Positions 14,208-64,000 of a stretch of 64,000 nucleotides of DNA are shown here, in pieces. Position 1 is the first letter of the stretch, and each line of letters begins with the position of its first letter. The notes below the pieces were generated by a model. It did not search any database. It was not told the origin of the DNA and saw only the letters and a list, made by a program, of their open reading frames with translations. Both the position numbers and the translations under genes were made by a program. The stretch comes from Escherichia coli (lineage in GTDB: Bacteria; Pseudomonadota; Gammaproteobacteria; Enterobacterales; Enterobacteriaceae), in assembly GCF_022846255.1 (NCBI RefSeq), contig NZ_AP025682.1. One strand, given 5' to 3'.

Positions 14208-14519
14208 TGTTTTCCTTGCGGGTTGTCCCGAGCCTCTTTGACGGATGTAATTAAAATGTTGAATCAAAATACATAGATATTAAATATGATCGTGGCAAAT
14301 TTTATTCATTAAATCAATTAAATCACTTAAACCTGCGGGTTATTTCGTAATTACATTAGTTAAAAAACTTAAAACCATTAAATAAATAAAAAACCACTAA
14401 CTCTATGTGAAATAAATCAAAATTTCACGCCGAAATACTCCTTAGGATGTATAGCGAAAGGAGAAAAAGATATACCTCGATCGCCCCCTTTCTCCCAAGT
14501 GAAAATAAAAGGTTATCAA

Positions 14520-33032: not shown

Positions 33033-35138
33033 TTAGTGTGCGCCTTTTGCCTGCGCCACGATCTCCTCGACATTTTCCGGCATTGGCTCATACGGCGTTT
33101 CTTTCGCCGTTGGCTTCGGATCTTTCAATGCCGCCAGTGCCGTCTTAATCGAGAACAGCGCCAGAACCACCACGACCACCATAAAGAAGATGGTTAACCC
33201 GGCATCCAGACGGTTGTTGAACACCAGTTGCGCCAGCTGTGACTCAGTATACTGCGACGGAATATTGCCGCTGTCGATCATTGCCTGGAACTTATTAGCA
33301 ATGGCCAGGAAGCCGACTTTCGCATCCGGGCTAAACGCTTTCTGCCAGCCTGCAGTCAGGGTACAAATCAGCAGCCAGGCCGTTGGTACCAGCGCCACCC
33401 AGGCGTAACGTTGACGTTTCATTTTGAACAGCACCACGGCACAGAGCATCAGCGCCATCCCTGCCAGCATCTGGTTGGCAATACCAAACAGCGGCCACAA
33501 GGTATTAATACCGCCCAGCGGATCGACCACGCCCTGATGCAGGAAGTAGCCCCACGCCAGCACACACAGCGCCGTTGCCAGCAGGTTCGCTGGCAGTGAA
33601 TCGGTCCGCTTCAGGCCAGGAGAAACCACGCCCAGCAGATCCTGCAACATAAAGCGTGCAGCACGCGTACCTGCATCCACCGCTGTCAGAATAAACAGTG
33701 CTTCAAACAGAATAGCGAAGTGATACCAGAACGCCACATCCATCATGCCGCCCAGCGCGCCGTGCAGAATGTAGGCCATCCCCACCGCCAGCGTCGGCGC
33801 ACCGCCCGCACGGGAAATGATCGACTGTTCACCCACTTCGCTGGCAATCTGGTTGAGCGTATCTGGTGTAATGCTAAAGCCCCAGCTACTCACCACCTGC
33901 GCGGCAGAAGCGACCACATCCGCCGTCCCTGCCGGAGCCAGCACCGCCATTGGGCTGTTCATGGCAAAATACACGCCCGGATCGATGATACAGGCAGAAA
34001 CCAGCGCCATAATCGCCACGAAGGATTCCATCAACATCCCACCGTAGCCGATAAAGCACGCCTGCCCTTCGTTCGCCAGCATCTTCGGCGTGGTGCCGGA
34101 AGAGATCAGCGCATGGAAGCCAGACACCGCACCACAGGCGATGGTGATAAACAGGAACGGGAACAGGTTACCGGTCCATACCGGTCCAGTGCCATCGACA
34201 AATTTGGTCAGCGCAGGCATGGTCAGCGTCGGGCGCATAATCAAAATGCCTACCGCCAGACCGACGATAGTCCCGATTTTCAGGAAGGTAGAGAGGTAGT
34301 CACGCGGGGCCAGCAGCAACCACACCGGCAGCACCGCCGCCACAAAACCGTAGCCCACCAGCATCCAGGTCAGCTGCACGCCGGTAAAGTCAAAGTACGG
34401 TGCCCAGGTCGGACTTTCTGCCACCCAGCCGCCAGAAATAATGGCGAAAATCAGGAATACCAGACCGATGACCGACACTTCACCAATACGCCCCGGACGC
34501 AGATAACGCAGGTAGATCCCCATGAACAGCGCCAGCGGAATGGTGAAAGCAACGGTATACGTTCCCCACGGGCTATGAGTCAGGGCTTTCACCACGATCA
34601 TCGCCAGCACGGCAAGGATAATGACCATGATCATAAAGCAGGCCACCAGCGCAATCACCCCGGCGGTTGGCCCCATCTCTTCTTTGACCAGCTCACCCAG
34701 CGAGCGACCGTCACGACGCGTAGAAACAAACAGCACCATGAAATCCTGCACCGCACCGGCGAGAACCACCCCGGCGAGCAGCCAGATCATCCCCGGCAGG
34801 TAGCCCATTTGCGCCGCCAGCACCGGCCCCACCAGCGGCCCTGCTCCGGCAATGGCCGCAAAATGGTGACCGAACAGCACTTTCTTGTCCGTCGGCACAT
34901 AGTCCAGCCCGTCGTTATGGCGCACCGCTGGCGTCATACGCGTCGGGTCAACCGCCAGCACATTTTTGGCGATATACAGACCATAAAAACGGTAAGCGAT
35001 CAGATAGATACAGACCGACGCCACCACAATCCACAGCGCGTTGATCTGTTCCCCACGATTTAAAGCAATGTATCCCAGAGCAAATGCTCCCATTACAGAG
35101 AGCACTGTCCAGACGAGGTATTTCCCTGATTTGTTCAT
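33033..35138 (-). CDS. cstA: Carbon starvation protein A (peptide/pyruvate transporter)
   Basis: 701 aa polytopic membrane protein; recognised CstA. Confidence 0.93.
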   Translation of the reverse strand: MNKSGKYLVWTVLSVMGAFALGYIALNRGEQINALWIVVASVCIYLIAYRFYGLYIAKNVLAVDPTRMTPAVRHNDGLDYVPTDKKVLFGHHFAAIAGAGPLVGPVLAAQMGYLPGMIWLLAGVVLAGAVQDFMVLFVSTRRDGRSLGELVKEEMGPTAGVIALVACFMIMVIILAVLAMIVVKALTHSPWGTYTVAFTIPLALFMGIYLRYLRPGRIGEVSVIGLVFLIFAIISGGWVAESPTWAPYFDFTGVQLTWMLVGYGFVAAVLPVWLLLAPRDYLSTFLKIGTIVGLAVGILIMRPTLTMPALTKFVDGTGPVWTGNLFPFLFITIACGAVSGFHALISSGTTPKMLANEGQACFIGYGGMLMESFVAIMALVSACIIDPGVYFAMNSPMAVLAPAGTADVVASAAQVVSSWGFSITPDTLNQIASEVGEQSIISRAGGAPTLAVGMAYILHGALGGMMDVAFWYHFAILFEALFILTAVDAGTRAARFMLQDLLGVVSPGLKRTDSLPANLLATALCVLAWGYFLHQGVVDPLGGINTLWPLFGIANQMLAGMALMLCAVVLFKMKRQRYAWVALVPTAWLLICTLTAGWQKAFSPDAKVGFLAIANKFQAMIDSGNIPSQYTESQLAQLVFNNRLDAGLTIFFMVVVVVLALFSIKTALAALKDPKPTAKETPYEPMPENVEEIVAQAKGAH

Positions 35139-35258
35139 AGTTGTTATCCGTGTGCGTGTCCATAGAGATGTTACATTTTGTTTCTATAACATCTTTGTAC
35201 GATTTAACAACACGGCAACCATGTAAATCGGAGTTGAAACCAATATTTAACTTAACAA

Positions 35259-35274
35259 TGTTAACTCGATCACT
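35259..35274. promoter_or_regulatory. CRP-like site (TGTTA-N6-TCACT) upstream of cstA
   Basis: tgttaactcgatcact, about 120 bp upstream of the cstA start; cstA is known to be cAMP-CRP dependent. Confidence 0.35.
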
Positions 35275-35318
35275 CCGTTAACCGAGTTTTCCTGCAATCT
35301 CATATAATTCTGTCGGGT

Positions 35319-55428: not shown

Positions 55429-56364
55429 TCAAAGCATTTCCCGTGCCTGAGCTGCAATTCCGGCAGCATCAAATCCATGATGCTGACGCAACCACCCACG
55501 ATCCGCCGCTGCGGCATATTCTCCATCCATAATGCCTGCGCGTTTTAATTTGATCCCCGTTCCGGCCTCTGCCAACACTTCCGCGACCAGGCTACCAAGG
55601 CCGCCATTGACGTTATGCTCTTCAACCGTCATCACTGCTTTGCATCCTTTTAACGCTGCCAGCAATGCTTTGGTGTCGCATGGGCGAATCGACGGTACGC
55701 TGACAACTGTAGCCGCGATACCAGACTGCGCTAAAAGTTCTGCGGCATCGACCACTTCATGAACGGTAGAGCCTGTGGCTACCAGCGCCAGTTCGCTGCC
55801 CTCGCGCAAAGTCACCACGGCACCTGGTACAAATCGGTAGTCCTCATCGTGGATTTCCGGCAGGGCTTTACCGTCCATACGGATATAAACAGGCCCCTGA
55901 TAGCGAAGAGCATAATCAATCACCTGACGGCACTCCCGAGGTGAAGACGGGGCAAAGATTTGAATATTGCCGAAACCACGCATAACCGCAATGTCATCAA
56001 TCGCATGATGCGTGCTCGCCAGCGGTCCATAACTCGCCCCGGCATTCAGACCAAACAATTTTACGTTGGTAAAGTTGTAGCAGACATCAACCTTGATTTG
56101 CTCGTTAGCGCGAGCGATAAGAAATGGCGCGGCATTGCAGGTAACAGCCACCTTGCCGCCCAGCGCCAGCCCGGCAGCGGCACCAACCATGCTCTGTTCG
56201 GCAATACCCACATTCACCAGTCGGTCAGGAAATTGCTTAATAAAGGGAGCAATTTTTGCCGTAGACGTTGAATCAGCCACTACAGGCACCAAATCGATCC
56301 CCTCATTTACGGCATCGATAAATGCCTGAACCATCACATTTGCCAGATGTTCACTGTTACGCAT
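55429..56364 (-). CDS. Transketolase C-terminal subunit (pyrimidine-binding and C-terminal domains) of a split transketolase
   Basis: 311 aa with transketolase Pyr/C-domain character; start overlaps the upstream N-subunit gene by 8 nt. Confidence 0.8.
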   Translation of the reverse strand: MRNSEHLANVMVQAFIDAVNEGIDLVPVVADSTSTAKIAPFIKQFPDRLVNVGIAEQSMVGAAAGLALGGKVAVTCNAAPFLIARANEQIKVDVCYNFTNVKLFGLNAGASYGPLASTHHAIDDIAVMRGFGNIQIFAPSSPRECRQVIDYALRYQGPVYIRMDGKALPEIHDEDYRFVPGAVVTLREGSELALVATGSTVHEVVDAAELLAQSGIAATVVSVPSIRPCDTKALLAALKGCKAVMTVEEHNVNGGLGSLVAEVLAEAGTGIKLKRAGIMDGEYAAAADRGWLRQHHGFDAAGIAAQAREML

Positions 56365-57187
56365 CTTTGAGTTCCTTCAGTGCCTGTTCAATTTCATCGC
56401 CTTTCGGCACCCGGTGATGCCATTCCGCACGCCCTTGTATAAAGGAAATGCCTGCCCCTTTAGTGGTGTGGGCAATCACCACATTCGGTTTGCCTTCCTG
56501 TTTAAGCCCTTCAAGCGTCGCGACAACCGAAGCCATATCATTGCCCTGACATTCGGTAACCTGCATACCGAATGCCAGCCATTTCTCTGCCAGAGGATCG
56601 GTGTTCATGATTTCGCGCGTTGGCCCGGCTAATTGCAGATTATTTTTGTCATTAATAATGACCAGGTTATCAAGCCCGTAATGCGCCGCCGCCAGTGCAG
56701 CTTCCCAGTTACTGCCCTCAGCCAGCTCACCATCGCCAGTAATTAAGAAGATACGACGACGGCTTTGACTTTTTTTCGCCGCCAGCGCAAGTCCTACAGC
56801 CACAGGGAAACCATGTCCCAGTGCTCCGGTATTCAGTTCAATACCTGGCGTTTTTTGCCGAACCGGATGGCCGGGTAAGTGTGAATTTGGCTGCTGATAA
56901 GTGGAAAGCCATTCCAGTGGGAAGAATCCTGCTTCCGCCAGCACGCAGTAGTAACATCCAACAGCATGGCCTTTTGACTGAATGTATATATCCCGGTCAT
57001 CGTCGTGAAGGCGATCCGGGGCGACATTGAGAATACGAAAATAGAGTGCGGTCAGTAATTCAACCTGAGAGAGATCGGCCCCAGTGTGTCCACCTGCCGG
57101 GCTATTGGCATTTAAGCGCACGATATGGCAGCGTACCGCCCGCGCTTTACGCTCAAGGGTCTGGATATCATAGCTATAGGGATTCAT
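56357..57187 (-). CDS. Transketolase N-terminal subunit (thiamine diphosphate-binding) of a split transketolase
   Basis: 276 aa; TPP-binding region (GHTGADLS... GDGELAEGSNWEA); SD agagg before ATG. Confidence 0.8.
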   Translation of the reverse strand: MNPYSYDIQTLERKARAVRCHIVRLNANSPAGGHTGADLSQVELLTALYFRILNVAPDRLHDDDRDIYIQSKGHAVGCYYCVLAEAGFFPLEWLSTYQQPNSHLPGHPVRQKTPGIELNTGALGHGFPVAVGLALAAKKSQSRRRIFLITGDGELAEGSNWEAALAAAHYGLDNLVIINDKNNLQLAGPTREIMNTDPLAEKWLAFGMQVTECQGNDMASVVATLEGLKQEGKPNVVIAHTTKGAGISFIQGRAEWHHRVPKGDEIEQALKELKDA

Positions 57188-57216
57188 TTAATACCTCTGA
57201 ATTTATTTTCAACATG

Positions 57217-57228
57217 GAATATTTATTC
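57217..57228. promoter_or_regulatory. Imperfect copy (GAATATTTATTC) of the island palindrome, 30 bp upstream of the transketolase start
   Basis: Near-palindromic 12-mer related to GAATATATATTC. Confidence 0.35.
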
Positions 57229-57366
57229 CACCGGGGACTAAAAAAACCAGAAATCCCAGGGCGTTGCGCGGCAAGACTTACGCTGCTGCATCATACTCAG
57301 GAACATTCTGCCTCCTTACACCGTCAGTTACGTGTCCGGGTAATCATCAGTTGACCTGATATCATC

Positions 57367-57382
57367 TTGAATATATATTCAA
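57367..57382. promoter_or_regulatory. Perfect 16-bp palindrome TTGAATATATATTCAA in the divergent transketolase / regulator promoter region; candidate operator
   Basis: Self-complementary 16-mer; core GAATATATATTC recurs at 58729-58740. Confidence 0.5.
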
Positions 57383-57549
57383 TAATGATTCTTTATTCAA
57401 TTATGCCGCCTGTTTTTTATTTTTGTCCATCGCTGATTTTAAGGATTGGTTAAAGTTAGAACTCCATCACACTTAACTGTCTTCTTTTTTCGCGTATGAT
57501 AAAAGCCTCTAAGATAAGGGCGGTACGTTAATGATTTACGGGGAAATAT

Positions 57550-58500
57550 ATGGCTAAGCAGGATGAACAGCGGCTACTGGTGAAGATCGCCACTCTTTAC
57601 TATCTTGAGGGGCGAAAACAGTCTGACATCGCCCAACTTCTCTCGCTTTCTCAGTCATTTATCTCCAGAGCGCTAACCCGTTGCCAGAAAGAAGGCGTGG
57701 TTAAAATCAGCGTTGTCCAGCCGTCAAATATCTTTCTCAATCTGGAAAAAGGCATTGAAGAGCGTTACGGCATTAAACAAGCGATTGTTGTCGATACCGA
57801 AGATGATGCCACTGACCATACCATTAAACGTGCTATCGGCTCTGCCGCCGCGCACTATCTGGAAACGCGTTTAAGACCAAAAGATTTCATTGGCGTCTCT
57901 TCCTGGAGTTCTACGATTCGCGCGATGGTCGATGAAGTTCACGCCCAAAACTTAAAAGCCAGCGGCGTTATTCAGCTGCTGGGCGGCGTGGGGCCAAACG
58001 GCAATGTGCAGGCAACTATTTTGACACAGACCCTGGCCCAGCATCTGAATTGCGAAGCCTGGTTGCTTCCTTCTCAAAGCATTGAAGGTTCGGTAGAAGA
58101 GAAAAAACGCCTGGTGGCAAGCCAGGATGTGGCTGACGTTATCGCCAGATTTGACGACGTCGATATCGCCATTGTCGGCATCGGTATCCTTGAACCCTCG
58201 CAGTTGCTAAAAACCTCGGGCAACTATTATCACGAGGATATGTTACAGGTACTGGCGGATCGCGGTGCTGTGGGCGATATCTGCCTGCACTACTACGATA
58301 AACATGGTCAGCCCGTGTTGCAGGACGATGAAGATCCAGTGATTGGTATGGCACTGGATAAAATCAAAAAATGCCCGAATGTGGTGGCACTGGCGGGCGG
58401 CAAAGACAAAGTTGCCGCCATCAAAGGCGCCATGCAGGGTGGTTATATTGATGTTTTGATCACTGATTTCCCCACCGCCAGAATGCTGATTGCGGATTAA
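57550..58500 (+). CDS. SorC/DeoR-family sugar-phosphate-responsive transcriptional regulator
   Basis: 316 aa; N-terminal HTH (QSDIAQLLSLSQSFISRAL) plus C-terminal sugar-phosphate-binding domain typical of SorC/LsrR-type regulators. Confidence 0.8.
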   Translation: MAKQDEQRLLVKIATLYYLEGRKQSDIAQLLSLSQSFISRALTRCQKEGVVKISVVQPSNIFLNLEKGIEERYGIKQAIVVDTEDDATDHTIKRAIGSAAAHYLETRLRPKDFIGVSSWSSTIRAMVDEVHAQNLKASGVIQLLGGVGPNGNVQATILTQTLAQHLNCEAWLLPSQSIEGSVEEKKRLVASQDVADVIARFDDVDIAIVGIGILEPSQLLKTSGNYYHEDMLQVLADRGAVGDICLHYYDKHGQPVLQDDEDPVIGMALDKIKKCPNVVALAGGKDKVAAIKGAMQGGYIDVLITDFPTARMLIAD

Positions 58501-58525
58501 TCCTCTCCTCCCTTTCTTCTGCCCG

Positions 58526-58553
58526 CCTTTGCGAAAAAATCTTCTCGCAAAGG
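58526..58553 (+). terminator. Stem-loop after the regulator gene (cctttgcga / tcgcaaagg)
   Basis: 9-bp inverted repeat with 10-nt loop; no clear T-tract. Confidence 0.35.
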
Positions 58554-58646
58554 CGCTTGCTTAAAAATCCTTTAATATCAATAAACTGAAATGATTCAAC
58601 AATCCTGTTTCTCGAGGCTTTCTCACCCTGTCACCACGCTTCTAAG

Positions 58647-58662
58647 TGTGATAGCCAGCACA
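58647..58662. promoter_or_regulatory. CRP-like site TGTGA-N6-GCACA upstream of the kinase/transporter operon
   Basis: tgtgatagccagcaca matches 9/10 of the consensus half-site positions; about 190 bp upstream of the kinase ATG. Confidence 0.45.
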
Positions 58663-58728
58663 TTTGATGATTTTTTCTCTAGCTCAGGAAGAATAATCTG
58701 GCTAAGGTATAAATAAATAATCAGCATC

Positions 58729-58740
58729 GAATATATATTC
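58729..58740. promoter_or_regulatory. Second copy of palindromic core GAATATATATTC, about 110 bp upstream of the kinase gene; candidate operator
   Basis: Exact repeat of the 12-bp palindromic core found at 57369-57380. Confidence 0.5.
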
Positions 58741-58850
58741 ACGCCTTAACACAAAATGTCACAGCAGGGCCTGATGAAGTAATAACGTGACCATGAGGAA
58801 CGCCTCATCTCCTTCCACGCCAGGATGCAATGTGACTCAGGAGACTACCT

Positions 58851-60371
58851 ATGTTTGCAGGAAATAAAGAGTTCGTTGTTGCGTTGGATGAGGGTACCAC
58901 CAATGTAAAAGCCATCGCACTTGATGGTTTCGGTAACGTGGTGGCGAAGTTTTCTCAACCACTGGCTATTCAGACGCCACGTGAAGGCTGGGTTGAGCAA
59001 TCCGGGGAAGCGTTAATCTCTGCCTCGCTTGATGTTATTGCCCAGGCCATCAACCACGTGGGGGCAGAAAATGTAGCGGCTCTGGCTATCAGTAATCAGC
59101 GTGAAACGGCTATCGGCTGGTATCGTCAGAGTGGAAAACCACTCAATGCGGCGATTACCTGGCAATGCACGCGCAGTGCAGAGTTTTGTGAAACACTTCG
59201 TCGCGAGGGCAAAGAGCAGCAAATTAAAACGACTACAGGCCTGCCTATCGCCCCGCTATTTTCCGCGTCCAAGATGCGTTGGCTACTGGAATCTACACCT
59301 GAGGGTGTGCAACTTGCCGACCAGGGTGAAATTTGTCTCGGCACCATTGATGCCTGGTTGCTATGGAACTTGACTGCTGGCGATTCATTTTGCTGCGACT
59401 ACTCTAACGCCGCGCGAACTCAATTACTTAACCTGAAAACAGGCGAGTGGGATGAGGAAATGCTGGCGTTGTTTCACATCCCACGCGCTGCATTGCCAGA
59501 AATTAAACCTTCCAGTGGCCTGTTCGGTTATACCCGAGGACTTAAAACAATTCCGGATGGTATTCCCGTCATGGCGATGGTGGGCGATTCTCACGCCGCT
59601 CTTTTTGGTCATGCGTTGGGAGAAGCGGGATGTGTGAAGGCGACCTATGGGACCGGTTCTTCCGTCATGGCCCCCGTCAACTCTGCTCAGTGTGATATCG
59701 CCACACTTGCCACAACCATTGCCTGGCATGATGGCGAAAATATTATTTACGGTCTGGAAGGAAATATCCCCCACACCGGCGATGCCGTGGCATGGATGGC
59801 TGACAGCACCGGTTTAAGTGAACTGACAGACGCGGAGCTGGCCCACGAACTGAATACCCTGCCAGCCTCAGTGGATTCGACTATGGGTGTTTATTTTGTT
59901 CCTGCTCTCACTGGCCTGGGCGCGCCATGGTGGGATGACAGCGCTCGCGGCGTGGTGTGTGGCTTAAGCCGTGGCGTAAAGCGCGCGCATTTGATTCGTG
60001 CCGCAATGGAATCAATCACTTATCAAATTGCAGATGTAGTGGAGGCAATGCAACAGCATGATGATTTTCACTTATCGGCGTTAATGGTGGATGGCGGCCC
60101 GACCAAAAATGACTGGTTGATGCAATATCAGGCGGATCTGCTGGGTTGCCCGGTGATGCGCAGTGATGTGCCAGAGCTTTCAGCCATTGGTGCGGGCCTG
60201 CTCGCCCGCAAAGCGCTTATCCCCGGTACCGTTGCAGATTTAAAAGCGTTATTAACTGAACACAGTGAATTTAAACCGGACATGGCGCGTCATCAGCGAC
60301 TGCAAAAGAGATGGCAGGAGTGGCGTCATGCGGTAAACAGAACATTATGGAAACCGGCATCGTCAATTTGA
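58851..60371 (+). CDS. FGGY-family carbohydrate kinase (xylulokinase / AI-2 kinase-like)
   Basis: 506 aa; FGGY N- and C-domain character; SD aggag before ATG. Confidence 0.8.
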   Translation: MFAGNKEFVVALDEGTTNVKAIALDGFGNVVAKFSQPLAIQTPREGWVEQSGEALISASLDVIAQAINHVGAENVAALAISNQRETAIGWYRQSGKPLNAAITWQCTRSAEFCETLRREGKEQQIKTTTGLPIAPLFSASKMRWLLESTPEGVQLADQGEICLGTIDAWLLWNLTAGDSFCCDYSNAARTQLLNLKTGEWDEEMLALFHIPRAALPEIKPSSGLFGYTRGLKTIPDGIPVMAMVGDSHAALFGHALGEAGCVKATYGTGSSVMAPVNSAQCDIATLATTIAWHDGENIIYGLEGNIPHTGDAVAWMADSTGLSELTDAELAHELNTLPASVDSTMGVYFVPALTGLGAPWWDDSARGVVCGLSRGVKRAHLIRAAMESITYQIADVVEAMQQHDDFHLSALMVDGGPTKNDWLMQYQADLLGCPVMRSDVPELSAIGAGLLARKALIPGTVADLKALLTEHSEFKPDMARHQRLQKRWQEWRHAVNRTLWKPASSI

Positions 60372-60474
60372 CGAACAAGACTAACCAACGGAAGGAGAAT
60401 ACCGGCCCATAAATAATTCAGGCTTTACGTTGTTTCACCGTACCCGACAATAACAACACAGAGAGAACATTGTC

Positions 60475-61410
60475 ATGAAATTACGTTTAACACTGTTAAC
60501 CGCTGCGACCCTGACTGCTCTTTCTTTTTCTGCTCATGCGGTAGAAAAAGGAACCATTATGATTATGGTCAATTCACTGGATAATCCTTATTACGCCTCG
60601 GAAGCGAAAGGTGCCAGTGAAAAAGCCCAGCAACTGGGATATAAAACGACCATTCTTTCTCATGGTGAAGATGTCAAAAAACAGAATGAACTGATCGATA
60701 CTGCAATTGGTAAAAAAGTTCAGGGCATTATTTTAGATAATGCCGACTCCACTGCCAGTGTTGCAGCCATTGAAAAAGCAAAAAAAGCAGGTATTCCCGT
60801 TATATTAATTAATCGCGAAATACCTGTGGATGATGTTGCACTGGTGCAAATTACCCATAATAACTTCCAGGCTGGCTCGGAAGTTGCCAACGTATTTGTC
60901 GAGAAAATGGGAGAGAAAGGAAAATATGCCGAACTCACCTGTAATCTTGCTGATAATAATTGCGTAACTCGCTCGAAATCTTTCCATCAGGTCATTGACC
61001 AGTTCCCTGAAATGGTCAGCGTGGCGAAGCAAGATGCCAAAGGCACGTTAATTGATGGCAAACGGATAATGGACAGTATTCTGCAAGCCCATCCCGATGT
61101 AAAAGGGGTGATTTGTGGTAATGGTCCGGTTGCACTGGGAGCTATCGCAGCACTGAAAGCAGCCAATCGCAATGACGTTATTGTTGTCGGCATTGATGGC
61201 AGTAACGATGAGCGCGATGCCGTGAAAGCCGAATCATTGCAGGCTACCGTGATGTTACAAGCGCAAGCCATTGCCGCGCAGGGGGTTACCGATTTGGATA
61301 ATTACCTGCAAAAAGGAGTTAAACCAGCCAAACAGCGGGTGATGTTCCGCGGCATTCTGATAACCAAAGATAACGCAGATAAAGTCCAGGATTTCAATAT
61401 CAAATCCTGA
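60475..61410 (+). CDS. Periplasmic sugar-binding protein of an ABC transporter (RbsB/LsrB-like)
   Basis: 311 aa; signal peptide ending SAHA; periplasmic binding protein type I fold features. Confidence 0.8.
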   Translation: MKLRLTLLTAATLTALSFSAHAVEKGTIMIMVNSLDNPYYASEAKGASEKAQQLGYKTTILSHGEDVKKQNELIDTAIGKKVQGIILDNADSTASVAAIEKAKKAGIPVILINREIPVDDVALVQITHNNFQAGSEVANVFVEKMGEKGKYAELTCNLADNNCVTRSKSFHQVIDQFPEMVSVAKQDAKGTLIDGKRIMDSILQAHPDVKGVICGNGPVALGAIAALKAANRNDVIVVGIDGSNDERDAVKAESLQATVMLQAQAIAAQGVTDLDNYLQKGVKPAKQRVMFRGILITKDNADKVQDFNIKS

Positions 61411-61456
61411 TCCCAGGTCGTTGCGCCCTCACAATGAGGGCGCAGAGGAGAATATT

Positions 61457-62077
61457 ATGGATAAAAAAGTCTGGCTGGCGCTGGCAATTCTGAGCCTGGG
61501 TGGATGTCGCATCGTCTCGCAGCAGGAACTTGCCGATCTCAAATCCCCGCCTAATCCTCATATGGCAAATATCGATCAGACCTGGCAGAAAAATATCGTG
61601 CCGCAGGTGGTAGAAAATGCACGTCCGGTTGCGGAGTTAATGGCGGCGCTACAGGCAGAAAAAGATGTCGATGCTGCCTGTAAAACGCTGGGCTATCGTT
61701 CTCAGGAAGAAAACCCGTGTATTTTCTACGTTAAGGTCGAAGGTGGCATCACCAATATTGATGCGAAATCCCGTAGCGGAAAAATGACCATCACAGATAT
61801 CAGCGGCACAAATATTGTCGTGCAGACGGGGCCAACTCTTCGCGGCACGCTTCTGCGAGATGCATATAAAGGTGCAAGCTATGAGCATTTTAACGATCAG
61901 GTTTTATTTGGTGAATATGGTCGTGCTATCAATGAGCAAGCCATCAATATGATTCAGTCGGCAAAGCTTAAAACCGGGGAAACGGTTCAGGTTTATGGCG
62001 TATTTTCTGCATGGGATATTCCGCAAACTATCCCGGATATAACGCCTGCGAAAATAGCCAGGGCGGGAGGCGAGTAA
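61457..62077 (+). CDS. Putative lipoprotein of unknown function embedded in the ABC transporter operon
   Basis: 206 aa from MDKKVWLALAILSLGGC (lipobox LGGC); AGGAG SD before this ATG; the ORF track entry starts 12 codons upstream. Confidence 0.55.
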   Translation: MDKKVWLALAILSLGGCRIVSQQELADLKSPPNPHMANIDQTWQKNIVPQVVENARPVAELMAALQAEKDVDAACKTLGYRSQEENPCIFYVKVEGGITNIDAKSRSGKMTITDISGTNIVVQTGPTLRGTLLRDAYKGASYEHFNDQVLFGEYGRAINEQAINMIQSAKLKTGETVQVYGVFSAWDIPQTIPDITPAKIARAGGE

Positions 62078-62078
62078 T

Positions 62079-63623
62079 ATGTTGCCGCAAGAAATTGACA
62101 CCCCCCAGACTGATGAATCACCTGTAATCATAGAAACGCATGACTTATCGCGTATTTATCCGGGTGTGGTGGCGTTAGATAACGTGAATTACCGTGTCTA
62201 TCGCAATAGAGTGAATGTGCTTATTGGTGAAAACGGTGCGGGTAAATCCACAATGATGAAAATGCTGGCGGGGGTTGAAACACCTTCCTCAGGCAAGATC
62301 ATTCTTGATGGTAAAGAAGTTACCCTAAATTCTACCCATCAGGCCGAAAAACATGGAATTAGTATCATTTTTCAGGAACTGAATTTATTCCCGAATATGA
62401 ATGTCATAGATAACATTTTCATGGCGAATGAATTTTTTCAGAAAGGGAAGATTAACGAAAAATATCAGTATGAATTAGCCAAATCTTTATTAGAGAGACT
62501 GGAGTTGGACGTTGATCCCTATACCCAACTGGGAGAACTTGGTATTGGTCATCAGCAACTGGTGGAGATTGCCCGTGCCCTTTCTAAAGATACCCGGGTA
62601 CTGATTATGGATGAACCGACCTCGGCCCTCAGCCAGTCGGAAGTCAAAGTACTTTTCAATGTGATCGCACAACTGAAGCGCCGTGGTGTCACCATCATTT
62701 ATATCTCCCACCGTCTGGAAGAGTTGATGGAGATTGGCGATTTCATCACCATTTTCCGTGATGGTCGCTTTATTAGTGAACGCGCAGTGAGCGATGCCAG
62801 TATTCCGTGGATCATCGCACAAATGGTCGGTGATAAGAAAAAACATTTTGATTATCAACCAGCTACACAAGGTGACACTGTACTGGCGGTACTGGGGTTA
62901 ACGGCGCTGCATCCCAGCGGTGGTTACAAACTCAATGATGTGACATTCAACCTGCGTAAAGGCGAAGTTATCGGCATTTACGGCTTGCTGGGCGCAGGAC
63001 GTACTGAGCTATTTAAAGGACTGGTGGGCCTGATGCCCTGTCAGAGTGGGAAGATCCTGCTTAATGGTGAAACCATCGACAAATGCCATTTCCAGGCGCG
63101 GCTCAAAAAGGGGCTGGCGTTGGTGCCAGAAGATCGCCAGGGCGAAGGCGTCGTTCAGATGATGTCGATTCAGTCCAATATGACGCTATCCGATTTCAGC
63201 CTGCAAGGTTTTCGCCGTGCCTGGAAATGGCTGAATCCGCAAAAAGAGAGCGCCAGTGTGAAAGAGATGATCCAGCAACTGGCGATCAAAGTCAGTGATG
63301 CCGAACTCCCTATTACCTCACTCAGCGGCGGTAACCAGCAAAAAGTGGTACTTGGCAAAGCGTTGATGACCCAGCCACAGGTGGTGTTTCTTGATGAACC
63401 CACACGCGGCATTGATGTTGGCGCAAAAACCGACGTCTATCAGCTGGTGGGAAAAATGGCACAACAGGGGCTGGCAGTCATGTTCTCTTCTTCAGAACTC
63501 GATGAAGTCATGGCACTGGCAGATCGCATTCTGGTGATGGCTGATGGCCGTATTACCGCTGATCTACCCCGGGGCGAAGTCACCCGAGAGAAACTGATCG
63601 CGGCTTCAACACCTCAAGATTAA
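62079..63623 (+). CDS. Sugar ABC transporter ATP-binding protein with duplicated ABC domains (RbsA-like)
   Basis: 514 aa; Walker A GENGAGKST in first domain, signature LSGGNQQK in second domain. Confidence 0.85.
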   Translation: MLPQEIDTPQTDESPVIIETHDLSRIYPGVVALDNVNYRVYRNRVNVLIGENGAGKSTMMKMLAGVETPSSGKIILDGKEVTLNSTHQAEKHGISIIFQELNLFPNMNVIDNIFMANEFFQKGKINEKYQYELAKSLLERLELDVDPYTQLGELGIGHQQLVEIARALSKDTRVLIMDEPTSALSQSEVKVLFNVIAQLKRRGVTIIYISHRLEELMEIGDFITIFRDGRFISERAVSDASIPWIIAQMVGDKKKHFDYQPATQGDTVLAVLGLTALHPSGGYKLNDVTFNLRKGEVIGIYGLLGAGRTELFKGLVGLMPCQSGKILLNGETIDKCHFQARLKKGLALVPEDRQGEGVVQMMSIQSNMTLSDFSLQGFRRAWKWLNPQKESASVKEMIQQLAIKVSDAELPITSLSGGNQQKVVLGKALMTQPQVVFLDEPTRGIDVGAKTDVYQLVGKMAQQGLAVMFSSSELDEVMALADRILVMADGRITADLPRGEVTREKLIAASTPQD

Positions 63624-63640
63624 TCAGGCTGGAATTTCTT

Positions 63641-64000
63641 ATGAATCAGAAATATATGATCTATATGTACCTGTTGAAAGCCAGAACGTTTATCGCTCTG
63701 CTGTTAGTGATCGCCTTCTTTAGCGTGATGGTGCCTAACTTCCTGACGGCCTCTAACCTGCTGATTATGACTCAACACGTTGCGATTACCGGGCTGCTGG
63801 CAATCGGAATGACGCTGGTGATCCTGACAGGCGGCATCGATCTTTCCGTCGGCGCGGTAGCGGGGATCTGCGGAATGGTTGCCGGGGCTCTGCTAACAAA
63901 CGGCCTGCCATTGTGGAGCGGCGATATTATTTTCTTCAACGTACCGGAAGTGATCCTCTGCGTGGCGGTATTTGGCATTTTAGTGGGACTGGTGAATGGT
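63641..64000 (+). CDS. Sugar ABC transporter permease (RbsC/AraH-like), N-terminal part; 3' end outside the window
   Basis: Open frame from ATG 63641 to the window end (120 codons, no stop); hydrophobic helices and a GGIDLSVG motif; absent from the ORF track because no stop is reached. Confidence 0.75.
   Translation, partial: MNQKYMIYMYLLKARTFIALLLVIAFFSVMVPNFLTASNLLIMTQHVAITGLLAIGMTLVILTGGIDLSVGAVAGICGMVAGALLTNGLPLWSGDIIFFNVPEVILCVAVFGILVGLVNG

Follow-up and report, generated by a model that had tools for sequence, protein, structure and literature searches.

The lac P1 promoter is the paradigm of class I activation by cAMP-CRP, the global regulator of the response to sugar starvation, in the sense of the Busby & Ebright model. 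Class I CRP sites are centred near -61.5, -72.5, -82.5 or -92.5, that is, on the same helix face as RNA polymerase, and the G:C pairs at positions 5 and 7 of the half-sites are the main base contacts of CRP. At the malT promoter, CRP is found at -70.5. Regarding sugar operons of other types, the E. coli lsr locus is reportedly CRP-dependent, and the inducer of a SorC-family regulator is usually a phosphorylated sugar. A split transketolase together with a kinase recalls the apulose-4-phosphate transketolase pathway, and gene clusters for a transketolase-dependent D-apiose pathway are said to exist. The apulose kinase is given as EC 2.7.1.233 (Q6D5T8) in a preprint (bioRxiv 10.64898/2026.02.12.705490).

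The locus that we compare with these systems lies in a stretch of E. coli DNA of 64,000 nucleotides, hereafter the window. A first, sequence-only reading of the window had noticed a CRP-like motif between a regulator gene and a kinase gene, in what it called an island. This word is justified, because the genes are placed with entD on one side and hokE/ybdK on the other in 630 of the 5,426 complete E. coli genomes, always on the chromosome. The genes of the island inside the window are the following:

55429-57187, minus strand: split transketolase genes (N-terminal subunit 56357-57187, C-terminal subunit 55429-56364)
57550-58500, plus strand: SorC/DeoR-type sugar-binding regulator of 316 aa (Pfam Sugar-bind, 5e-62)
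58851-64000, plus strand: presumed controlled operon (kinase, SBP, DUF2291, ABC ATPase, permease)
58851-60371, plus strand: FGGY (GlpK-like) kinase of 506 aa
60475-61410, plus strand: RbsB-like SBP
61457-62077, plus strand: DUF2291 lipoprotein
62079-63623, plus strand: ABC ATPase
from about 63641, plus strand: permease, cut by the window end

The split transketolase and the regulator gene are divergently transcribed, and in complete genomes the permease is followed, beyond the window end, by two SDR oxidoreductase genes. The relatives of the regulator in the PDB are SorC, B. subtilis DeoR and LsrR (3.6e-28 for LsrR). The kinase is nearest to glycerol kinase (PDB GlpK, 1e-113) and stays below the GlpK cutoff (496 vs 590 bits). 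With a kinase, an ABC sugar transporter, two SDRs and a split transketolase, it was reasonable to speak of a secondary carbon-source pathway, as the first reading did. A literature search returned no paper on the island or its regulation.

As a system, the nearest analogue would be the lsr locus of E. coli. Both have a SorC-family repressor, an FGGY kinase and an RbsB-type ABC importer, and both would share the co-control of a divergent promoter region by cAMP-CRP, which is a prediction in the case of the island. However, the gene order is different, the proteins are distant (136 bits against a cutoff of 486 for the NCBIfam LsrR model, and 64 against 528 for LsrK), the operator motif is another one, and the island adds the split transketolase, DUF2291 and the two SDRs.

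The motif TGTGATAGCCAGCACA occupies window positions 58647-58662, inside the 350-bp gap that begins after the stop codon of the regulator ORF (316 aa, 57550-58500) and ends before the start codon of the FGGY kinase ORF (506 aa, ATG at 58851). The 16-mer tgtgatagccagcaca agrees with TGTGA-N6-TCACA at 9 of the 10 core positions; thus, both the place and the near-consensus match claimed at the outset were confirmed. We define the element as follows:

58644-58665, unstranded: CRP site 1, the 22-mer AAGTGTGATAGCCAGCACATTT (flanks AAG/TTT, core 58647-58662 with a spacer of 6 bp, dyad centre 58654.5)

The single core mismatch is GCACA for TCACA, at position 8 of the right half, and it falls at the least critical core position. 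G5 and G7 are kept in the left half TGTGA as well as in the right half GCACA (TGTGC on the other strand), and in the 30 orthologous loci described below these bases of both half-sites are invariant. The tdc (tdcABC) and pBR322-P4 sites, which belong to the training set of our matrix, have the identical core TGTGA-N6-GCACA. The genes at these two sites and at malT are unrelated to the island; the likeness concerns only the sequence or the position of the site.

The 10-base core by itself is not significant across the window. Allowing at most one mismatch, it occurs 3 times in the 64 kb against 1.9 expected, and 34 of 100 shuffles equal that number. The count is therefore unusable as evidence and a full position weight matrix (PWM) was required. 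We used a symmetrised 22-bp matrix made from 18 classical CRP-regulated sequences (the Stormo-Hartzell set). On this matrix the 22-mer scores 16.69 bits and ranks first among 63,979 window positions, with an exact P of 6.2e-7 per position, which means an expectation of 0.04 per window and of 2e-4 per 350-bp intergenic region. From this P around 3 chance sites per 5 Mb are predicted at the 16.69-bit level, and 0.1% of the shuffled intergenic regions attained it. For comparison, the training median is 14.4 bits, the lac site scores 16.9 and the tnaA site 16.4. Scored against the background, the proposed site is thus the top of the window and level with lac and tnaA. Only three window positions reach 14 bits or more; all three fall between genes, two of them within the island.

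Regarding the matrix, the 15 chromosomal training sequences, concatenated, gave hits in 5,425 of the 5,426 E. coli genomes, with 14 distinct locations per genome as the median. Since malE and malK lie in a common region, 14 is what one would expect, and therefore the chromosomal training DNA is genuine; the verification covered these 15 of the 18 training sequences, the other three being of plasmid or transposon origin. As a control within the window we scored the region upstream of cstA (35109-35288), which we take to be a CRP-dependent gene. Its best score was 7.3 bits (35256-35277), so this is a weak and uninformative control, which tells us that the sensitivity of the matrix, specific as it is, is limited. 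The low score could be due to a very degenerate site, to a limitation of the matrix, or to cstA not being CRP-dependent after all.

The runner-up of the matrix in the window was CTATGTGAAATAAATCAAAATT at 14403-14424, with 16.0 bits. By collinearity with another of our loci (L077), this is the dpiB (citA)-citC intergenic region, and a CRP-like site there fits catabolite control of the citrate-fermentation genes.

In order to describe the conservation of site 1, the kinase protein was scanned against one genome per species, which gave 75 loci. Among them are 30 close orthologous loci, whose kinases are 75-99% identical and which come from 11 enterobacterial genera (Escherichia, Citrobacter, Klebsiella, Raoultella, Enterobacter, Serratia, Trabulsiella, Cedecea, Phytobacter, Mixta and Pantoea). 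TGTGAT-N5-GCACA is present in all 30, at 155-223 bp upstream of the kinase ATG. Over these loci the 11 half-site positions show one substitution (ACACA in Pantoea), so that TGTGAT and GCACA are intact in 29 of the 30, and the spacer has at least 10 forms. The information content is 1.98 bits for the half-sites, 1.20 for the spacer and 0.95 for the remaining intergenic region. Within E. coli, the divergent alleles (95.7-98.3% identical in the region) alter the site at one spacer base only. Kept half-sites around a free spacer are what a dimeric factor contacting both halves would be expected to leave. Because the island moves horizontally, part of the conservation reflects shared descent; recent transfer alone would not give the contrast between half-sites and spacer. 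The G of GCACA is invariant across the genera except for the Pantoea ACACA, and pure selection for CRP binding does not demand that G.

Some particularities of the alleles can be mentioned here. The window allele of 58501-58850 is rare: only 6 of the 630 island-bearing E. coli genomes have it at 99% identity or more, and the others are at 95-99%. All the Escherichia alleles examined, including that of the window, have one T fewer than the other genera (TAAGGTATAAAT here, TAAGGTATTAAAT there).

Around site 1, the alignment of the orthologs shows, in this order, a hairpin, the block at 58572-58601, around 45 diverged bases, the CRP-like site, a T-rich tract, T(A/G)GC(C/T)C, 17 poorly conserved bases, TAAGGT and a 33-bp block. 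In the window these elements are:

58525-58554, plus strand: hairpin GCCTTTGCGA-N10-TCGCAAAGGC after the regulator stop, with arms that co-vary across genera
58572-58601, plus strand: conserved upstream block TTTAATATCAATAAACTGAAATGATTCAAC, at about -145 to -115, with the words TCAATAA and TGATTC that are common to the operator blocks
58663-58676, plus strand: conserved T-rich tract TTTGATGATTTTTT on the promoter side of the CRP site, at about -53 to -40
58680-58685, plus strand: candidate weak -35 TAGCTC (T(A/G)GC(C/T)C in orthologs), conserved columns 17 bp upstream of TAAGGT
58703-58708, plus strand: candidate -10 TAAGGT, with TAnnnT kept and a fixed CRP spacing
58709-58741, plus strand: near-invariant block ATAAATAAATAATCAGCATCGAATATATATTCA with the perfect palindrome GAATATATATTC (58729-58740), at about +1 to +27, candidate operator

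The hairpin is probably the terminator of the regulator gene, and in that case the kinase promoter would be an independent transcription unit. Our terminator scan did not flag it, because the hairpin has no T-run. The block at 58572-58601 may be an auxiliary operator or the site of an architectural protein.

The proposed core promoter is a poor one. TAGCTC agrees with TTGACA at 3 of 6 positions, TAGCTC-17-TAAGGT as a whole agrees with the consensus at 6 of 12, and a simple sigma-70 scan of the kinase intergenic region called no promoter. Therefore, we infer this promoter from conservation and not from consensus. A core of this kind would have the look of an activator-dependent promoter. Mixta and Pantoea have TATCGT in place of TAAGGT, and Phytobacter has TAATCT; that TAnnnT is retained in divergent loci is the signature of a -10 hexamer. 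Furthermore, the hexamer starts 48.5 bp from the CRP dyad in 28 of the 30 loci and 49.5 bp from it in the other 2, whereas the distance from the dyad to the palindrome ranges over 80-83 bp and that to the ATG over 155-223 bp. TAAGGT is also placed relative to the operator block as CATAAT is in the transketolase (tkt) promoter described below.

If the hexamer is taken as -12/-7 or as -13/-8, the CRP centre is at -60.5 or -61.5 relative to a transcription start deduced in this way, which would lie at about 58715-58716. We lean towards the view that the geometry of site 1 is exactly that of a class I site at -61.5, and the T-rich tract would then sit, by analogy with other class I promoters, where the RNA polymerase alpha-CTD docks. 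Compared with lac P1, the kinase promoter would likewise have a single CRP site near -61.5 (from the deduced start) upstream of a weak promoter and an operator of a local repressor that overlaps or follows the transcription start, and the PWM scores are nearly equal (16.7 here and 16.9 in lac). Unlike lac P1, the putative repressor of the island belongs to the SorC family and not to LacI, the right half-site is GCACA and the predicted leader is long, with around 135 nt.

This leader contains a conserved inverted repeat around a variable stretch of around 50-60 nt: GUCACA (58758-58763) can pair with UGUGAC (58831-58836), the latter directly before the Shine-Dalgarno AGGAG (58839-58843), with an inner pairing of CCUG (58770-58773) and CAGG (58821-58824). 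In one of the orthologous loci (L014) both arms have changed to G-U-compatible bases. RNAalifold predicted the stem, with nearly all pairs invariant, and an Rfam search of 57100-58950 gave no family match. The repeat could be a translational or attenuator structure, or else consist of sites at the DNA level.

On the other side of the regulator gene we found a second CRP-like site and two further palindromes, together with the promoters of the divergent genes:

57453-57474, unstranded: CRP site 2, AAGTTAGAACTCCATCACACTT, centre 57463.5, 15.29 bits, third best in the window
57400-57429, minus strand: tkt promoter TGGACA-18-CATAAT (-35 at 57429-57424, -10 at 57405-57400), called by the scan, 10 of 12 matches
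57473-57500, plus strand: candidate regulator promoter TTAACT-16-TATGAT, 9 of 12 matches, with a -10 that keeps TAnnnT across genera
57369-57380, unstranded: second copy of GAATATATATTC, shortly after the tkt -10, with flanks like those of the kinase-promoter block
57217-57228, unstranded: third copy, the operator-like palindrome GAATATTTATTC, around 30 bp before the transketolase start codon (57187)

Site 2 is conserved as TTAGA-N6-TCACA in nearly all orthologs. It lies at about -70.5 from the tkt promoter on the minus strand, as the CRP site of malT does from its own promoter, and both hexamers of the tkt promoter are conserved in the orthologs, as seen in TTTGTCCAT and TTATG. On the plus strand site 2 is 31.5 bp upstream of the conserved TATGAT, at about -43.5 from the putative start of the regulator transcript, which is near the class II position but not exactly at it. 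There is also a promoter-like TTGACC-17-TATATT (10 of 12) at 57351-57379 on the plus strand, with its -10 inside the GAATATATATTC palindrome, and this may be a second, autoregulated promoter towards the regulator gene.

The palindromes follow a simple pattern. Almost all loci carry a single GAATATATATTC in the one intergenic region and a single one in the other. The flanks of its two exact copies in the window are alike in opposite orientation (TTGAATATATATTCAATAATGATTCTTTATTCA and, as reverse complement, GTGAATATATATTCGATGCTGATTATTTATTTA), so that the block at 58709-58741 recurs reversed at 57368-57400, and it is also found in the sister clusters described below. The GAATATTTATTC palindrome is likewise kept by every ortholog and by the sister clusters. 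Written as GAATAT(A/T)TATTC, the motif has three copies, starting at 57217, 57369 and 58729, and every one of them lies downstream of a -10 hexamer, where a repressor would be expected to bind. Thus, GAATAT(A/T)TATTC is probably the operator of the SorC-type repressor of the island. To our knowledge, no operator with this sequence has been described.

The search with the kinase also returned around 25 further loci with kinases 65-75% identical and a different gene order, tktN-tktC-FucI-like isomerase (472 aa)-kinase. These sister clusters (our loci L027-L049, L053, L055 and L074-L076, e.g. L028 500-760) are hosted by Leclercia, Kosakonia, Phytobacter, Citrobacter braakii and others. A conserved CRP-like site, AAATGTGATCCTTTTCTC(C/T)TTT, scoring 12-14 bits, is present in 20 of the around 25. 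It is located 36.5 bp upstream of TAGACA-17-TATCTT, i.e. at about -71.5, and the promoter is followed by CATGAATAATAAATCAG-N3-TGAATATATATTCA, with a second GAATAT(T/A)TATTC ahead of the ribosome-binding site. The design of a CRP-like site plus candidate operator is thus common to two clusters that are organised differently, and this argues for function. The likeness suggests a single type of regulon for two related pathways, of which one has an isomerase and the other a pair of SDRs.

With these results, we regard it as probable, and with considerable confidence, that 58644-58665 is a functional cAMP-CRP site which would activate the kinase/ABC-transporter/SDR operon by a class I mechanism. 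The PWM score, the conservation of the half-sites, the spacing, the second site and the sister clusters all support, on computational grounds, the original reading of a CRP site that controls the island operon. The predicted site is an ordinary control element of a well-known class that was previously unannotated here. We infer activation and not repression. CRP bound at about -61.5 would recruit RNA polymerase through the alpha-CTD to the intrinsically weak kinase promoter, and the SorC-type repressor would occupy the GAATATATATTC block (about +1 to +27) as long as the inducer, a sugar or sugar phosphate, is absent, so that expression would require low glucose (cAMP-CRP) and inducer together. 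CRP site 2 (57453-57474) would likewise activate the divergent tkt promoter from about -70.5 and possibly the regulator promoter as well. The operon would thus be predicted to be silent in glucose-rich media. The site shows where the promoter of this accessory sugar operon would be; the operon is uncharacterised and is carried by around one in eight E. coli genomes and by gut- and plant-associated Enterobacterales, and the mapped set of two CRP sites, three operator copies and three promoters offers a handle for finding the inducer and hence the substrate.

Other readings of the same region have to be weighed against this one. CRP could bind the site and act by a mechanism other than simple class I activation at -61.5, which we consider unlikely. 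The -10 might be AATAAT (58716-58721), since the AT-rich block after TAAGGT holds several -10-like hexamers and no consensus promoter was called; this would place CRP out of phase, at about -73.5 or -74.5, and from genus to genus the distances to AATAAT and to the palindrome shift by 1-3 bp, only that to TAAGGT being fixed. Besides, TAAGGT keeps TAnnnT in the most divergent loci and is placed relative to the operator block like the well-formed CATAAT of tkt. Alternatively, CRP might work with or against the SorC-type repressor, for example by bending the DNA between 58572-58601 and the operator at +1 to +27 while the two are joined in a loop; actually, the CRP site does lie between two conserved blocks, the upstream of which shares words with the operator. 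The fixed spacing to TAAGGT speaks against this version too, and we keep class I activation as the preferred mechanism.

That the palindrome at 58644-58665 belongs to a different regulator, either the SorC-family protein of the island or an unidentified factor, seems to us quite improbable. It is a conserved inverted repeat that adjoins a regulator gene, a related motif is found in the second promoter region of the island, and the invariance of the G in GCACA may point to some constraint that the CRP consensus does not impose. Against this, the differences between the two island sites are those of degenerate CRP sites (TGTGA/GCACA vs TTAGA/TCACA), both score high on an independent CRP matrix and both are upstream of a -35, which is the position of an activator. 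The element that is repeated three times downstream of -10 hexamers, and that is common to the sister clusters, is GAATAT(A/T)TATTC, which is AT-rich like the operator of B. subtilis DeoR. We give even less weight to a chance match without function that is conserved merely by recent horizontal spread. The island is indeed accessory and mobile, and the core with up to one mismatch is no rarer in the window than expected by chance; nevertheless, the whole 22-mer has a P of 6e-7, the spacing to the -10 is fixed, and among kinases down to 75% identity, where the intergenic DNA is largely randomised (0.95 bits), there is one half-site substitution in 30 loci. Binding by CRP is therefore the reading that we retain.

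Nor do the TGTGA-type sites look like SorC-family operators, for which one motif would be expected at every promoter of the regulon and in a place that blocks RNA polymerase; they are upstream of the -35s and mutually different. Two further candidates were discarded. A site for FNR, the other CRP-family regulator of Enterobacterales (TTGAT-N4-ATCAA), was ruled out by the half-sites TGTGA/GCACA with G at position 5, and a sigma-54 promoter (TGGC...) was dropped because there is no GC element at -12.

Regarding the substrate, the island resembles the D-apiose clusters in its split transketolase, sugar kinase and RbsB-like SBP, and it has two SDRs where the sister cluster has the FucI-like isomerase. 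The nearest solved structures to the island SBP are R. etli 5IBQ and 4RY0 (E around 1e-79), which we take to be D-apiose/ribose-binding SBPs. Two large homolog searches returned generic names only, and the name apulose kinase was absent from the homologs down to 67% identity. A literature search on apulose/apiose, DUF2291 and SorC/FGGY/transketolase found nothing relevant, and a paper that cites 5IBQ gives only a generic name for it. A substrate of the D-apiose/apiitol type is hinted at by the SBP structures together with the split transketolase, as a lead and not as a finding.

More broadly, we put forward, as a tentative possibility, that the island and the sister cluster represent a catabolic route undescribed in E. 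coli, which would combine the ABC importer and its DUF2291 lipoprotein with the two SDRs, the GlpK-like kinase and the split transketolase, for a polyol or a branched or rare sugar, possibly D-apiose/apiitol-like, under a new SorC-family repressor that would act on GAATAT(A/T)TATTC in AND-logic with CRP. If this were true, the three promoters and five sites would be the complete cis-regulatory wiring of an unknown regulon, present in around 12% of the E. coli genomes and in many Klebsiella, Citrobacter, Raoultella and Serratia.

Finally, two of the matches deserve a remark. One of the loci (L015, JAJUHI010000057.1) is an 11.8-kb contig binned as 'Sporobacter termitidis' (a Firmicutes MAG) that carries the island, with a kinase 83% identical and the CRP site present; it is probably a mis-binned Enterobacteriaceae contig. 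In the E. coli sequence NZ_OZ040716.1 (3514982-3520148), an IS903B is inserted within the stretch that matches window 57400-61500, and the match is therefore split into two pieces around 1 kb apart.
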